A stretch of DNA of 64,000 nt from Octopus sinensis (taxonomy: Eukaryota): assembly GCF_006345805.1 (NCBI RefSeq), contig NC_042999.1, positions 136,524,001-136,588,000 on the forward strand, given 5' to 3'. Numbering within the stretch: position 1 is the first letter of the stretch; each line of letters starts with the position of its first letter. Shown one piece after another: positions 5,056-63,454 of this stretch. The translations under genes were made by a program, and so were the position numbers. Below the pieces are notes generated by a model. The model saw only the letters and a list, made by a program, of their open reading frames with translations. It did no database searches and had not been told where the DNA came from.

Positions 5056-5440
5056 TTTACTCTTTTACTTGTTTCAGTTATTTGACTGTGGCCATGCTGG
5101 AGCACCACCTTTAGTCAAACAAATCAACCCCAGAACTTATTCTTATAGTCTCTTTTGCTGAACTGCTAAGTTACGGAGATGTAAATACACAAACATCAGT
5201 TGTCAAGCAGTGGAGGAGGAACAAACACAGGCACACAAATACATATATATATATATATATACATATATACACACACACATGATGGGCATCTTTCAGTTTC
5301 CATCTACCAAATCCACTCACAAGGCATTGGTCGACCTGAGGTTTTAGTAGAAGACACTTGTTCAAGGTGCAACACAGTGGGACTGAACCCAGAACCATGT
5401 TGTTGGGCAGCATGCTTCTTACCGTACAGTCACTCCTGCA
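5056..5440 (-). mobile_element. SINE family A
   Basis: Head and tail both present around an internal (TA)/(CA) tract. Confidence 0.85.
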
Positions 5441-5471
5441 TACATATGAGTGTGTGTGTGTGTATATATAT

Positions 5472-5585
5472 AATTGCAGTGTGGAAGGTGTTTATAAGCC
5501 ATTTAAGAAACACCTTCCACGCTACAATTGTTTTCGTTCCAGCACATGATCTCAGATCAAGTCACTCGCTATGCAAGTACATCTC

Positions 5586-5590
<5 letters not shown>
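5472..5590 (-). mobile_element. Fold-back fragment of a repeat also present at 35882-36091 (probably Penelope-like terminal region)
   Basis: 5514-5588 is the reverse complement of 35884-35962. 5472-5535 forms a hairpin. Flanked by (TA)n. Confidence 0.55.
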
Positions 5591-5623
<33 letters not shown>

Positions 5624-5697
5624 GGAGAGTTCTCTCCGGAGAACTCTCCGTAGCAAAAAAACAAGGATAACGCTATTAAAGATAAACATTACGTCGC

Positions 5698-5736
5698 AAG
5701 AAATTTGAAGAGCTAAATGCGAAACCGGCCTTTCTT
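5698..5736 (+). ncRNA. Minimal type-I hammerhead-like motif (U3 variant; cleavage triplet GCC in this copy)
   Basis: aagaaa-t-TTGAAGA-gc taaat gc-GAAA-ccgg-cc-tttctt: stem I aagaaa/tttctt, palindromic stem III. Confidence 0.4.
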
Positions 5737-6088
5737 TAAAAATTATAAAATTATGTCATTATAAGAAGGGAAAAAAATTTTTCCAATATTCTCCAGACAT
5801 ATTGACGCAAATATATATATTCTTTAACATTTAAGCCTTCTGTCGTTTTTTCACTCTTTACTATTTTCTTATATATTCACCCACGTGCTTTCACAAACAA
5901 ACTTTCTTATCTATATATATATAGATTGTTTGTGAAAGCACGTGGGTGAATATATAAGAAAATAGTAAAGAGTGAAAAAACGACAGAAGGCTTAAATGTT
6001 AAAGAATATATATATTTGCGTCAATATGTCTGGAGAATATTGGAAAAATTTTTTCCCTTCTTATAATGACATAATTTTATAATTTTTA

Positions 6089-6127
6089 AAGAAAGACCGG
6101 TTTCGCATTTAGCTCTTCAAATTTCTT
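6089..6127 (-). ncRNA. Minimal type-I hammerhead-like motif (U3 variant, GUC site)
   Basis: Minus strand reads aagaaatTTGAAGAgctaaatgcGAAAccgGTCtttctt. Confidence 0.5.
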
Positions 6128-6312
6128 GCGACGTAATGTTTATCTTTAATAGCATTATCCTTGTCTTTTTGCAACGGAGAGTTCTCCGGAGAGAACTCTC
6201 CGTAGCAAAAAAACAAGGATAACGCTATTAAAGATAAACATTACGTCGCAAGAGAGAACTCTCTGTAGCAAAAAAACAAGGATAACGCTATTAAAGATAA
6301 ACATTACGTTGC

Positions 6313-6351
6313 AAGAAATTTGAAGAGCTAAATGCGAAACCGGTCTTTCTT
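6313..6351 (+). ncRNA. Minimal type-I hammerhead-like motif (U3 variant, GUC site)
   Basis: aagaaatTTGAAGAgctaaatgcGAAAccgGTCtttctt. Confidence 0.5.
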
Positions 6352-6482
6352 TAAAAATTATAAAATTATGTCATTATAAGAAGGGAAAAAAATTTTTCCA
6401 ATATTCTCCAGACATATTGACGCAAATATATATATTCTTTAACATTTAAGCCTTCTGTCGTTTTTTCACTCTTTATTATTTT

Positions 6483-6544
<62 letters not shown>

Positions 6545-6582
6545 TATATACATATATATATATATACACATATACATATATA

Positions 6583-6657
6583 ACAAACCAGGAAAATGGG
6601 AACGTTTTTGGTATTTTTTAATAATAATACCAAAAATTTCCATTTTCCTGCTTTGTT
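6583..6657. repeat. Imperfect inverted repeat (~33-bp arms) next to (TA)n
   Basis: acaaaccaggaaaatgggaacgtttttggtatt / aataccaaaaatttccattttcctgctttgt. Confidence 0.75.
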
Positions 6658-6910
6658 GTATGCTAATTCTGCCAATAATATTACCATAATTCACAATTTT
6701 AATATGTATATTAATTAACATAAAACAGTAACTATGGATACATATTGATTATAATAATGGAATAAGGAGATGCACTTCTATGGGAAACAACTGGGATTTA
6801 CCCTAACTAATGATATAATGTATTTTTTTATTTTATTTTATTTTATCTAGTTTCAGCTCACGAGCTGTGGCCATGCTGGGGCACCACCATGTATGTATGA
6901 ATGTATATAT

Positions 6911-7161: not shown

Positions 7162-7795
7162 GGGGGGGGTGCAGAAATATAGGGGAGCACCAGTGGGAGG
7201 GGTGGTTCAGAGGACAGGTTCTAGGCAAGTAGAACGTAGGAAATCGAGAGAGGGGTAATGCATGGTGAAATAGCGTATTGAAGAGGGGGGTTCAAAGAGT
7301 AGACACCTATAATGGTGGTGGGGGGTGCAGAAATATAGGGGAGCACCAGTGGGAGGGGTGGTTCAGAGGACAGGTTCTAGGCAAGTAGAACGTAGGATAT
7401 CGAGAGAGGGGTAATGCATGGTGAAATAGCGTATTGAAGAGGGGGGTTCAAAGAGTAGACACCTATAATGGTGGTGGGGGGGTGCAGAAATATAGGGGAG
7501 CACCAGTGGGAGGGGTGGTTCAGAGGACAGGTTCTAGGCAAGTAGAACGTAGGATATCGAAAGAGGGGTAATGCATGGTGAAATAGCGTATTGAAGAGGG
7601 GGGTTCAAAGAGTAGACACCTATAATGGTGGTGGTGGGGGGTGCAGAAATATAGGGGAGCACCAGTGGGAGGGGTGGTTCAGAGGACAGGTTCTAGACAA
7701 GTAGAACGTAGGATATCGAGAGAGGGGTAATGCATGGTGAAATAGCATATTGAAGAGGGGGGTTCAAAGAGTAGACACCTATAATGGTGGTGGGA
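7162..7795 (+). repeat. Tandem array of four ~157-bp G-rich units
   Basis: gcagaaatataggggagcacc recurs at 7171, 7327, 7484 and 7643; the units are near-identical. Confidence 0.95.
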
Positions 7796-9537: not shown

Positions 9538-12500
9538 ATGGCAGACCTATTAGCTTCCATAGTACAGTTGCAAAAGCAACAACAATAACTACAACAACAA
9601 CAATTATTGGAGCTATATTCAAAGAAGTCCAAAAATGAGATAAGCTTGTTTTCACTAGACAGTGTTTTGAACTTGATTAGTGAATTCAGTTATAACCCAG
9701 AGGAGGGTATAACTTTCGCATCGTACTACAGAAGGTACAAGGAGATTTTTAAGCAAGATTGCAAATCATGGTCAGACGAACAAAAAGTGAGATTGTTATT
9801 GTGAAAATTATCTCCATTGGAGCATGAACATTACTGTAATTTCATATTGCCCAAAAGACCCAATGAAATTTGTCTTAAAGAAACAATAGAATTACTGTCT
9901 AACATATTTGGTGATAAAACCTCTCTACTTAACACTCGAATGGGATGTTAGGATTTAGCAAAAAAGAGAATGATGATTTTATCATATATTGCAGGAACAG
10001 TTAGCAGGACATATGAAAGTTTTAAACTCAAAGAACTTACACCTGAGATGTTCAAGCGTCTTATTTTCATAAAAGGCCTTATAGCAAGTGAAGATAGAGA
10101 AATTCAGGCAAGAATTCTTTCTAAATTGGAACAAGTGCACCAAGAATTAACCATTCAGTCCATGATAGAAGAATGCCAAAGAAAAAGATTCCTCAAAAAT
10201 ACAGGTATGCTGACTGGAAAAGTACAACCAAAAAAGAACACCACATTCAAATCCATGTTATAGATATGGGGACATACATTTCAGAAAAGACTGTCCATTT
10301 AAAAATCAAAAATGTTACAGTTGCAAAAGAATTGGTCACAAGAGTTCACACTGCAGGACAAAATTATGAAAATCCCAAAGTTTTCTCAGTAGAAGCAAAA
10401 ATCAATTCCCAAATAATAAAATTCACATACATAAAAATAAATGGAATAAGAATTAAACTTCAATGAGATACTGGAAGTGATATTTCAATAATAAATATGG
10501 ACACATGGAAGAAAATAGGGAAACTTATGTTGAGAAAAATAGCGAAATCTGCTTGTAGTATGATGGGTGACAAATTACATTTCATAGGCGAAATGTAGAC
10601 TGATGTCACAATTCAAGGGAAAACATGCAAGGTGAAAGTCTTTGTTATTAAAAATGCAATCAATCTGTTTGGTACTGATAGGTTAGAATTATTCGATTTA
10701 TGGGACTTCCCCATAAATCTCTATCGTAAAAACATAAATGGTTGTTCCTCTAAAAATAATTTGTCTGAAGAGTTTAAAGAGAACATTTTTTTTTTAATGT
10801 TTCTGCAAGTAATCTTGAACAAACTAGGTCTATGCACAAAGACTAAAGTGTGTTTTGAATTAGATGATAACGTTACACCTGTGTTCAAACCTAATAGGAA
10901 AGTGCCTTTTGTGGAAATAAAGCAAGTGGATGATGATTGGACGATGATTGGAAAAAGTGGAATTGTTGAAAAAGTGGATTACACAAAATAGGCAGTTCCA
11001 ACTGTACGTATAAAAAAGAAAAATAACAAAATTAAGTTGTGTGCCAATTTTTCGACTGGTTTAAATCACTGTTTAAAAGTGAACCATTATCCATTACCAA
11101 CCCCAGAACATATTTTTACAAAACTAAATGGAGGAAAAATATTTTCAAAACTCAATCTGTCTGATACATATTTACAAATCAAAGTAGGTAAAAAAAAATG
11201 CTCAAAGCTGTTAATGGTTAACACACACAGAGGTCTATACATATACAATAGACTACCTTTTGGCTTGAAGGTAGCACCTGAATATTTCAACAGGTGGTGG
11301 ATGTGATGTTTGTAGACTGTCAATTTACCTGTCCTTACCTTGATAATGTGTTAATCAAAAGCAAATCGTGGAATGAGCATATCGAACACGTAAAGTGTGT
11401 CTTTAAAAAAATTAAGGATTATGATTTCACATTCAGTGAAGAGAAGTGTGAAATTTTTTTTTTTTTTTTTGCCTAAAATCAAATACCTAGATCAAATCAT
11501 AGATAAGAATGGAAGACATCCTGACTTGTCAAAATCAGATGCAAGCAAGAATATGCCTCCTCCAACAAATATACCAACATTACAAGCTTTCCTTGGCCTA
11601 GTAAATGACTACCAATAGTAAATTCCAAATATACATAAACTGAAAGCACCATTAAACGATTTACAAAAGAAATTAGTAAGATGGAATTGGTTAGTAAAGT
11701 GCCAAAATGCATTTGAAAACATAAAGAAAATATTAATTTCTGACTTGTTACTAGTGCATTTTGATCCTAGAATGGACATTGTTGTAGTATCTGATGCTTT
11801 GGAGTATGGAATAGGAGCAGTCTTGCTACACAAGTATAAAGATGGAAATATGAAGCTAATAGTTCGTGCTTCATATTCGCTGATAGTAGTGAAAAAATGT
11901 ATAGTCAGATAGAGGAGGCTCTATTAATTATTTTTGCAGTAAAAAAATTTCACAAATTTCTACATGGTAAAAGTTTTTGTTACAAACCAACCCTCGACCA
12001 TTACTATCAATCTTTGGATAAAAGAAGGGACTGCCTACTCATACAGTGAACTGACTACAATTCAGGGGTTCAATATTGCTGAACTACAATTTTAAGATGC
12101 AGTATATTCCGTCAAAGAAAATGGATTATGCAGACTGCTTATCGAGGCTAATTCCCAAGAGCGTGGAACCACTAGAAGAGACCATGATAGCATCATTGCA
12201 GTCAGAAAAGGAAGTAAGAAGTATTGTGTGTAATATAATCCAGGAACTGTTGGTGACAGTGCATGATATAAAAATGAAATCCATAGAAGATAGTTACATT
12301 ACAAGAATGAAAGAAACATTGAAAAAGAAGAATAATAAAAATACAAATTCAAATAATTTCTCACTATGCAATGATGTGAGCATGGTGAGTAATACTACCA
12401 AGTGCACTACAGAAATGAGTATTGCAACAATTCCACTGGGGGCACCCAGGAATGACCAGAATGAAAGCTTTAATGAAGAGCTTTGTATATTGGCTGACTA

Positions 12501-13450
12501 TGGACAGGAACACCAAGAAATTGGTGAAAGCATGTAGGGGTTGTGCAACCGAAGCACCACCAGTAAAATACCAATCTGGCCAGAGACTAAGAGCCCAAGG
12601 TTGGATACATATCAACTATGCTGGACCAGTGAATGGTGCATACTATCTAATCATTGTGGATAGCTATACAAAGTGGCCAGAGGTATGCAGATGTCATAAA
12701 CCCACAGCAAAGACAACAATAAAGTTCCTACTTGAGTTATTTGCTCGATATGGTGTTCCAGACATGTTAGTTTCAGATTATGAAATACAATTCACGGGAT
12801 ACGTATTAAGAAATTTTTACAAATTACATGCCATAAAGCACATGCTTACCCCGCCCTACCAGCTGAAGTCAAGTGGGCTAGTGGAAAGATTTATCATCAT
12901 ATTCAAAAGAGCTCTAAGAAAAGCCAAGAACAAGTTAGATAATGATGAGGCACTAACGAAATTCTTGAGAGTATATAGAATAATGCCGAATATAAATATT
13001 AATTCAGGAAAGTCACCAGAAGAGTTAATGTTCACGCATAAAATAAAATCGATCTTTGATGAATTATTACCAAGAATAAATACATATAAAGAAAGACAAA
13101 ATATACATTTGAAGAAAATACAAGAAATATTAATATTACAAAACATTTCAAAGTAGGAAATAAAGTTCATTTTAAAAATTACAAAAATGGTAAAGAAGGT
13201 TGGGAGGATGGCTGTGAAACCAAAAGATTTGGTAACATGATGTATTTAATTAAAGAAAAACGTTCAGAACATGAGACAACTTAACCATTTAAAGATGAGA
13301 CATACAGAAGAATGAAGGGTGATACCAAAGGAAGTCTTCAATGATATGTTTTAAGTGCCAGCATCAAGAGATATTGAATCCCATAGAACAAGCTTCAGAA
13401 AACGAAAACAGACTGAATATCTGGAAGTAATACCTAAATGAAAAAGATAT
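9538..13450 (+). pseudogene. Gypsy gag-pol with many stops and frameshifts
   Basis: Gag EFSYNPEEGITFASYYRRYKEIF; two Zn knuckles PCYRYGDIHFRKDC/CYSCKRIGHKSSHC; protease LQ*DTGSDISII; RT YPLPTPEHIF…YNRLPFG…YLDN; RNase H VSDALEYGIGAVL; integrase HWGHPG…IHINYAGP…IVDSYTKWPEV. Confidence 0.92.
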
Positions 13451-27062: not shown

Positions 27063-28582
27063 AGAAATATGTTTCAGAAAGAAAATAGAAGCTACACGTG
27101 GAAAAGATATGGGGAAAATAAGAAGAAAAAAGCGATAATGCATATTGGATATCAAAAAAATAAAGGCTTCTATATGAAAAGTAGCGATAAATAAATACAA
27201 TTAGATGAACTGAAGTAGAATTAAGAGGAATTAAATTAATTATTTTGAATTGTTAAAGAGATTCAGAATAAAACCGGTATCGTCATTGCTGTTCACTGGC
27301 TTTGAATGCACACCGATTATCAAACAGTGTTGGGTCTACTAGTCCCTGATTAAAAAGATTGTGTAAGGGAGGTGTTCAGTGAACATTGGTAGAAGGGGAA
27401 AATTAAGAAATTGGGATTAAGGTTCCTAGCATACCTATCTATGTATTCACTGACCTGTATCTGTTTGTATCGTGGGTGGTGGATTTGTTGTTTGTGAAGA
27501 GTGGTTCTTCAGTGGAGTGATATTCCTGTTTGGCCAATATATTGATTACCGCACCCTAAGTGGGTAATGGCATAGATTAGGTTTTCTGAGGCACAGGTGA
27601 AATTTGATTTAATCTTAAATATTTCATCTTGTTTAATGTGGAACTCTGTATCCACCAAAAGGTGGGGGCTTGTGCCACAGTTAGGCCAACCGCATCTTTT
27701 CACTTTTGGTTCTGTTGTTATGGATAAAGTCTTGTGTAGGTTTATATTTTTTCAATGATTTCAGTTGCATTTTGCTCTTGATAATTTTGTGTGAGCCCAG
27801 TCAGAATGGGTAGATTTTGGATGATAATGTTGAAAGCTTCGTTGTTTCTAGGGTTATGTGTGGAGATGTATAGGAGTATTTTTAAGTCTGGTGTAGTATT
27901 TCAGTTGACTTCCCTTGATGTTCATATGTCTATTTGCTCGTTTAATCTCATCATTTATTAATGATGTTGGGTAATGTCTCTTGATTAGTATTGATCTGAG
28001 TTCAAGGAGTCTTTGTTTTGGTGTCTGAAACTATGGTACAGATTCTTTTCGCTAGATTATAAGGTATATTAATTTTTATGAGTTTGGGGTGGCATGAGTT
28101 GAATAATAGGTATTGTTTTGAATCTGTGTGTTTATAGAACATGTCCGTTCCGATGTGGTTATTGACTATTTTAATTAGGATGTCAAGAAAAGAGAGTTTT
28201 TTTATTGCTGTGTTCCAAGGTAAATTGTATGTTGCTGTTGATATTGTTGAGCATTATTTTGAAATCGAGGAGTGTGTCCATGCTATCTTTCCAAAGTATA
28301 AAGCAATCATCATATTTTTGTAGTGATGATTGGCATATTTTAAGTTCTAGGTAACCCATTACAAGGTTCGCGATCACTGGGGCAGCTCATGTTCCCATCG
28401 CAATTCCACATTTTTGTGAATAGTAGACTGTATCGAACATGAAATAGTTGTTCAGTAGGATGAATTTCAGTGCTGCAATTATGAATCTGTGGTTGATGCA
28501 TCTTGGGATCTCTTCTGGGTATTTTTCTAGTCCGAAGGTAACTGCTTCTATGCCATAATCATGTGGGATATTGGTGTGTACA
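27060..28582 (-). mobile_element. Decayed Penelope-like element (Neptune-type RT + GIY-YIG), 5'-truncated
   Basis: TNIPHDYGIEA…LKFILLNNYF…GIAMGT*AAP.IANLVMGYLE…DDCF…NIQFTLE; Cys linker CGWPNCGT; FTCASENLIYAI…YIGQTG. The 3' end abuts (TA)n. Confidence 0.88.
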
Positions 28583-28614
28583 CACACACATATATATACA
28601 TACATATATATATA

Positions 28615-62962: not shown

Positions 62963-62963
<1 letters not shown>

Positions 62964-63454
62964 CCTCTTTCAAACGAGCCCGCAATCTGCGTGACCTCCT
63001 GGTCCACAGCACCCTCTCTCCTTCCCCCTCAGCCCCACACGGATCATTCCCTTGCTCTAGATCCCGCTGCAACACTTGCCCCTTCATCACCAACACCACC
63101 GCTGTCACCGGCTCCAACCTGCACACTGTACGCATTAGGCACTCTTTTACGTGCACCTCGTCTGGCCTTATTTACTGCATTAAATGCAACCTATGCGGGA
63201 TGCTGTATGTAGGACAGACGGGACGCCGGTTGTCCGACCGTTTCACTGAGCACTTAAGGGACGTTCGCCTACACTCTCTTTCTCCCGTCGCACGCCACTT
63301 CCGCTCGGCCGGCCATTCCCTAGATGACATCTCAGTGTTTGGTCTCGCCCCCCACCAAGGTCGCCCACTTTCCAGGCTCCACTTGGAGCAACGCTACATC
63401 TTCACCCTACAAACTACCACCCCACACGGACTTAACACAGCCCCCTCCTCTTGA
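62963..63454 (+). CDS. Penelope-like (Neptune-type) Zn-linker + GIY-YIG endonuclease, intact C-terminal fragment
   Basis: KRARNLRDLLV…PCSRSRCNTC…FTCTSSGLIYCIKC..C…YVGQTGRRLSDRFTEH…VARHF…H…LEQRYIFTL…PHGLN*. Confidence 0.85.

Follow-up and report, generated by a model that had tools for sequence, protein, structure and literature searches.

The four-armed repeat at positions 5591-6582 of the window, by which we mean the whole 64,000-nt stretch of Octopus sinensis DNA analysed here, is very likely what an autonomous Penelope-like retrotransposon left behind on inserting, with heavy 5' truncation, into (TA)n; arms B and D stand head-to-head, and arms A and C would each be a one-off copy produced at the DNA level at the junction hairpin. 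By its sequence, the ~270-bp unit from which the arms are built is the 3' part of the pseudo-LTR (pLTR) of an autonomous, endonuclease-positive Penelope-like element of the Neptune/Nematis type. The family has two 3' ends and a TA target, and the head-to-head arrangement is its norm; the junction and the tail-to-tail centre of the window locus are both unique. The locus itself is a dead fragment that has lost all coding sequence, and represents an ordinary insertion with one rare secondary fold-back.

From left to right, the locus consists of (TA)16, hairpin 1, arm A(+), a TA palindrome, arm B(-), hairpin 2, arms C(+) and D(+), and a long TA tract. On the left, the target tract (TA)n at 5591-5622 leads into hairpin 1 (5621-5652; 14-bp stem, loop TCCG), which is composed of a 14-nt inverted remnant, junction filler and the start of arm A. 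Arm A (5640-5910, plus strand) represents the 3' part of the pLTR, element positions +1 to +271, with the full tail and one private substitution; its 34-nt Penelope 'tail' (5877-5910, plus strand) spans the interval between the two 3' ends of the family, +237 to +271. The central TA palindrome (5909-5926) joins arm A tail-to-tail to arm B (5927-6185, minus strand), a tailed pLTR arm running from +1 to about +261 with three private substitutions and one deletion, and with a tail end that is 9 nt short. Hairpin 2 (6174-6203; 13-bp stem, loop CGGA) forms the head-to-head B/C junction and includes 6 nt of filler (6186-6191) that is not element sequence at that position. Arm C (6191-6253, plus strand) is a 63-nt aborted or duplicated start (+1 to +62) free of private changes, and is followed by the tail-less pLTR arm D (6254-6491, plus strand; +1 to +237), which carries three private substitutions, two of them at CpG, and ends 34 nt earlier than arm A because it has no tail. 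The right (TA)n target tract occupies 6485-6582. Both ends of the insertion thus lie inside (TA)n, where a target-site duplication cannot be read.

The initial annotation had described this geometry correctly. Its hairpin start with the loop TCCG, central TA palindrome and inverted copy were all located at the positions given above (the inverted arms are 97-99% complementary), and the restart after ~63 nt at 6254 corresponds to a tandem repeat at 6189-6316. The few substitutions it reported between copies are likewise present: relative to the commonest letter in 41 other copies, arms A, B and D show one, four and three differences per 237 nt, respectively, and arm C shows none in 62 nt.

The identity of the unit emerged from a comparison of arm A with the 2.72-Gb genome of the same species, which yielded 46 matches from the 40 candidates scored out of 1,903. 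Nearly all matched copies extend upstream at the point where the window carries the hairpin, and in other copies the stop codon of an ORF is located ~80 nt upstream of the unit. Inspected by eye, the translated ORF fragments of the family display DKG, RT motifs, a linker of the form CxxxxCxxC and a domain that resembles GIY-YIG and contains two inner cysteines; in family sequence P0001, the CX2-5CxxC linker precedes the endonuclease. The definitions in the text of PMC8557442 make this an endonuclease-positive element of the Neptune/Nematis type. One homologue, P0003, aligns over residues 19-752 within a single frame of the natural copy L046 (57.5%), and 94 of 95 longer homologues carry precomputed PF28514 and PF26215 assignments, most of them together with PF00078 and/or PF01541. 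In direct Pfam scans, RVT_1 scored above cut-off in homologues P0003 and P0007, and GIY-YIG in P0007; five ORF fragments from this genome gave no direct Pfam match at E<=0.001, P0001 matched GIY-YIG weakly (E=0.021), and a search of solved structures (PDB) with P0003 returned no match. The link to Penelope-like elements made in the initial annotation therefore stands, as the unit is the pLTR 3' part of an element coding for RT and GIY-YIG, and for the same reason its description as a small non-autonomous element does not.

The family is abundant. Exact genome searches recovered 1,018 matches to a pLTR 20-mer, 499 to a tail 25-mer and 140 to the hammerhead core of the window type, and the reversed-pattern controls of all three counts were zero. 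The 3' ends of 41 copies fall into two groups, at +236/237/240 in 16 and at +266/269/271 in 25. Older and more decayed relatives of the RT/EN ORF also occur elsewhere in the window, at 27368-28587 (minus strand; 40-72% amino-acid identity in pieces) and at 62963-63325 (plus strand; 29% amino-acid identity). In addition, the window contains a G-rich unit of 156-159 bp in four tandem copies that are 97% alike and lie within another repeat (7163-7794), as well as broken ORFs at 10125-13153, which by eye we take to resemble protease and integrase pieces of LTR retrotransposons.

As far as the text of PMC8557442 describes them, Neptune/Nematis-type elements share with this family the GIY-YIG domain after the RT, the CX2-5CxxC linker, DKG and a pLTR with a hammerhead, as well as strong 5' truncation, an adjacent inverted 5'-truncated copy, a 30-40-bp tail at one end and microsatellite targets. 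Unlike those elements, the window locus is devoid of coding sequence and possesses an extra tail-to-tail inverted arm and a duplicated junction.

We mapped the arms of the family against single natural copies in two sets. Set 1 comprised 46 sites including the window; set 2 comprised 56 new loci among the first 100 of the 1,018 pLTR 20-mer matches, set 1 loci excluded, with coordinates on a sister subfamily that may be offset by about 2 nt. By hand count, 30 of the 45 other set 1 sites carry head-to-head arms, 14 are solo within the fetched DNA and one is a tandem; the 56 loci of set 2 contain 36 head-to-head pairs. Where both 3' ends are visible, one arm is tailed and the other tail-less in 24 of 25 pairs of set 1 and in 34 of 36 of set 2 (32 of 34 once three copies of one insertion are merged), which amounts to 56 of 59 independent two-arm sites. 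The exceptions carry two tails, and pairs of two tail-less arms are not found among them. From this pattern, a single Penelope-like insertion would seem to use each RT start site once. A tendency of the tailed arm to be the shorter of the two was not significant (14 vs 7, p=0.19) and does not fix the order of the two primings. According to the text of PMC11167929, a Penelope-like protein cuts AT-rich DNA on both strands in vitro and extends the ends, with RT starting at two sites that delimit the tail.

The B-C-D part of the window locus conforms to this normal form, and a three-part junction of the same type and order, with a perfect 38-bp fold-back hairpin, is found at C3:54.41 Mb. Near-symmetric fold-back junctions, in which the arm starts are at most 20 nt apart, account for 5 of 22 pairs in one set and 7 of 36 in the other, at positions ranging from +101 to -1236; when 13 junctions, partly picked for their symmetry, were folded, eight formed long stems, and several near-symmetric ones gave perfect stems. 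Some junctions have been repeated by host duplication, as in L175, where one pair occurs twice in direct orientation, and in L134, L163 and L164, which share a single junction. Three insertions (L136, L141 and L152) are near-perfect palindromes with arms of about 0.5, 1.5 and 1.2 kb, respectively, which persist in the assembly.

Head-to-head palindromic junctions in Penelope-like elements are already known from the literature. Palindromes at the inverted junction of Penelope elements have been interpreted as self-priming, with head-to-head copies as the most frequent form and tail-to-tail copies as the expected product of 3' self-priming (text of PMC3846280). The Adineta vaga insertions described there resemble the octopus family in their head-to-head inverted pLTRs, palindromic junction and optional tail; they differ in that the window locus combines both forms, with the tail-to-tail turn in a TA tract. 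We found no description of the exact four-arm form in the texts consulted on Penelope elements; figures, supplements, Arkhipova 2006, and Evgen'ev and Arkhipova 2005 may show it. Its palindromic head-to-head junction is in print (PMC3846280).

Hairpins 1 and 2 are the only stems of at least 13 bp with loops of at most 10 nt outside TA repeats in the window, and the long-stem scan returned three overlapping matches there vs three in total across 20 base shuffles. The two hairpins are not independent. When reverse-complemented, hairpin 2 matches the core of hairpin 1 exactly, and hairpin 1 is an inverted copy of hairpin 2 that is cut off at the first TA dinucleotide; the flip/flop appearance is therefore a single junction seen in two orientations. 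Given that any asymmetric head-to-head junction would read as flip/flop from its two arms, this feature alone provides no evidence of rolling-hairpin replication: the complementary loops TCCG and CGGA reported in the initial annotation are present, but they represent one junction encountered twice. A genome-wide search for the junction 28-mer, allowing up to three mismatches, found no match beyond its two places in the window, and a looser pattern added one locus with a different loop. The 5' ends of the family's arms are scattered from -2599 to +202 in the two mapped sets, and none of the 147 other arms with a visible 5' end (0/66 in set 1, 0/81 in set 2) starts at +1, the nearest being at -4 and +4. 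The hairpin thus does not mark a defined terminus, an outcome that the initial annotation had itself named as one that would refute its reading.

The tail-to-tail turn over a short TA palindrome is equally singular, with one site in the genome, for TA spacers within the range of the search pattern, compared to the 499 tail matches. The duplication in arm A extends over B and the junction and, 14 nt further on, stops at the first TA dinucleotide, which is the start of the left TA tract. Arm D begins with a junction-derived G that is absent from the element at that position, and the 63-nt repeat must therefore postdate the junction, in agreement with the local restart at the hairpin proposed earlier. 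Both arm A and the 63-bp restart would most simply be explained by DNA-level template switches at self-complementary sequence.

We propose the following course of events. The endonuclease would nick the TA tract on both strands, and the two 3'-OH ends would prime one cDNA each, of which one would begin at the +271 start and the other at +237. Both cDNAs would halt at +1, where a short snap-back could supply the filler and join them head-to-head, giving hairpin 2. Slippage or re-priming at hairpin 2 might then duplicate 63 bp, producing arms C and D. Finally, a strand ending in self-complementary TA behind the tail of B would fold back and be copied through B and the junction to a point 14 nt further on; rejoining at the first TA of the left tract would yield arm A and hairpin 1. 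We lean only slightly towards the last two steps having taken place during integration, as opposed to later host repair. Two observations speak against this explanation: the tail-to-tail centre is a singleton, so that the mechanism rests on one example, and arm A is full-tailed while B is 9 nt short, so that simple copying of B would have to involve either a subsequent deletion or a slip guided by about 1 nt of homology.

The element's own RT might instead have generated the whole structure. In a frozen rolling-hairpin-like run of the Penelope RT, two cDNAs from the two start sites of one RNA would be joined by snap-back and the hairpin reused through the TA turn-around, with strict twin priming. 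We consider this unlikely; if it were true, the pairing at 56 of 59 sites would mean that each insertion uses each start site once, that is, twin priming from a protein dimer. It is quite improbable, too, that the RT built all four arms in one continuous run at integration, re-priming on the junction hairpin and turning at the TA palindrome. Such a run would account for a junction that occurs twice in opposite orientations, for the junction-derived bases with which C and D each start, and for the fact that no derived mutation is common to the arms, as expected from simultaneous origin; moreover, self-priming has been proposed for Penelope elements (text of PMC3846280). However, arm B is tailed and colinear from +1 to +261, whereas its cis template, C+D, contains the 63-nt repeat and no tail. 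Arm B is therefore not a cis copy, and a rolling path acting in cis alone does not work. Host duplication, too, produces identical junctions, as at the loci named above, and tail-to-tail sites number one vs 499 tail matches. We found no literature linking Penelope with rolling-hairpin replication and, by title, none on twin priming in the Penelope mechanism.

A chimera created in the assembly or the library, for instance from a fold-back long read or merged haplotypes, appears very unlikely as the source of arm A or of all four arms. In its favour, arm A forms an inverted duplication around a self-complementary tract that is unique in the genome, and it is the arm nearest to the commonest letters of the family, a state that polishing with reads from other copies could cause. 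On the other hand, arms A and B are separated by four substitutions and one indel over 237 nt, and errors in long reads are mainly indels. A distinct left flank resumes after 283 nt and requires a second switch, and B-C-D by itself fits the real architecture of the family. Three of the seven private substitutions are CpG>TpG changes, in a unit that holds eight CpGs in 237 nt. Judged by these letters, the private variants would fit independent decay after a joint origin and count against a recent chimera, though less so for arm A, which is closest to the family norm, and the locus is probably real and old because its arms carry private, partly CpG-type substitutions. We also compared sequencing reads from 7 of 24 listed runs, with filtered records. 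For 5300-6800 (four runs) and 6130-6290 (four runs), no listed piece spans a junction, the material consisting of fragmentary contigs or ~3% of the raw reads; at 6130-6189 and 6256-6290, cover was zero in four runs, with material possibly from other individuals or species.

The weakest reading takes the locus for the integrated intermediate of a ribozyme retroelement that is small and non-autonomous and is primed by a defined terminal hairpin of the flip/flop type. It could draw on a hairpin that precedes three arms in both loop orientations and on a hammerhead-like motif in each full arm, but is highly improbable and is refuted within this assembly, where the junction is absent elsewhere, none of the 147 other mapped arms starts at +1 and other copies run on into the RT/EN ORF. 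Against it also stand four sequencing runs in which loose ends at the junction position carry the family's normal upstream sequence, or other sequence. Parvovirus-type rolling-hairpin replicons carry an asymmetric palindrome in two complementary forms between inverted copies and depend on an HUH nickase. Unlike parvoviruses, the family has neither a fixed terminus nor a unit-length population; one defined terminal hairpin in flip and flop across the population was not seen in the mapped copies, and the family's own ORF encodes RT and GIY-YIG, not an HUH/Rep nickase partner. Nor does the family resemble retrozymes, which would form discrete units with fixed ends in head-to-tail repeats, given that its 5' ends are scattered.

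The hammerhead-like motif noted earlier in each full copy was confirmed at 5698-5736 (plus strand, arm A), 6089-6127 (minus strand, arm B) and 6313-6351 (plus strand, arm D), the triplet being GCC in arm A and GTC in arms B and D. Its topology is that of the minimal type I, and in a co-fold its palindromic helix III forms pairs in trans. In the window subfamily, U3 lies opposite G8, helix II is 2 bp long and one U is unpaired at helix I, features seen in arm D as a U3.G8 core, a bulged U and the palindromic helix III; arm A additionally lacks U16.1 of the cleavage triplet (GTC>GCC at 5729) and is predicted to be dead. In the main sister subfamily, 59 of 80 motifs combine a U3-A8 core with a 7-bp helix I and GUA. 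At gathering score, Rfam yielded no hammerhead match in the window, and down to E=10 none of the 76 matches over 5400-6600 belonged to a hammerhead family. Rfam models may miss minimal hammerhead forms. The Rfam miRNA matches were below gathering score and reflect generic long-hairpin similarity. We take the motif to be a true hammerhead of the family, predicted to be degenerate in the window subfamily. Arm starts at +82 to +93, near the predicted cut, occur in 5 of 81 cases, a post hoc and weak hint that is confounded by a local palindrome. Compared to the minimal hammerheads of metazoan Penelope-like elements in the text of PMC4209133, the motif shares the type I topology, G10.1-C11.1 and a tiny palindromic helix III suiting dimers, and is unlike them in the window subfamily's U3 opposite G8, 2-bp helix II and unpaired U; the U3-A8 core variant is named in that source. 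Hammerhead cleavage is dispensable for insertion in vitro (text of PMC11167929).

Two other repeats touch on these subjects. At C1:182.08 Mb (L108-L110), C2:188.53 Mb, C3:138.20 Mb and C4:158.03 Mb, another family with a hammerhead forms tandem arrays that repeat every 355-360 bp or so and in many cases begin with an inverted copy; if a small retrozyme-like element is sought, this family is a stronger candidate than the four-arm locus. In the same TA-rich stretch of the window, a second, unrelated repeat at 5470-5590 forms a head-to-head fold-back with 22-nt arms and AAACAC microhomology. Near-identical fold-backs of ~115 nt exist at 14 other fetched loci, with junctions that vary slightly and are in many cases located in TA tracts. 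This repeat has the appearance of a snap-back hotspot belonging to a different family of higher copy number, and it is nearer to a recurring hairpin than the four-arm locus.

As a dead fragment of a common retrotransposon, the locus itself carries little weight. Its family, in contrast, comprises ~1,000 young pLTR copies whose junctions can be read, shows fold-backs at many positions and a one-to-one pairing of its two fixed 3' ends, and also offers hammerhead variants (U3-A8 vs U3.G8) in recently mobile subfamilies. The formation of inverted ends is left unsolved in the text of PMC8557442 and PMC11167929, and the family could be used as a genomic data set on how Penelope-like elements form them.
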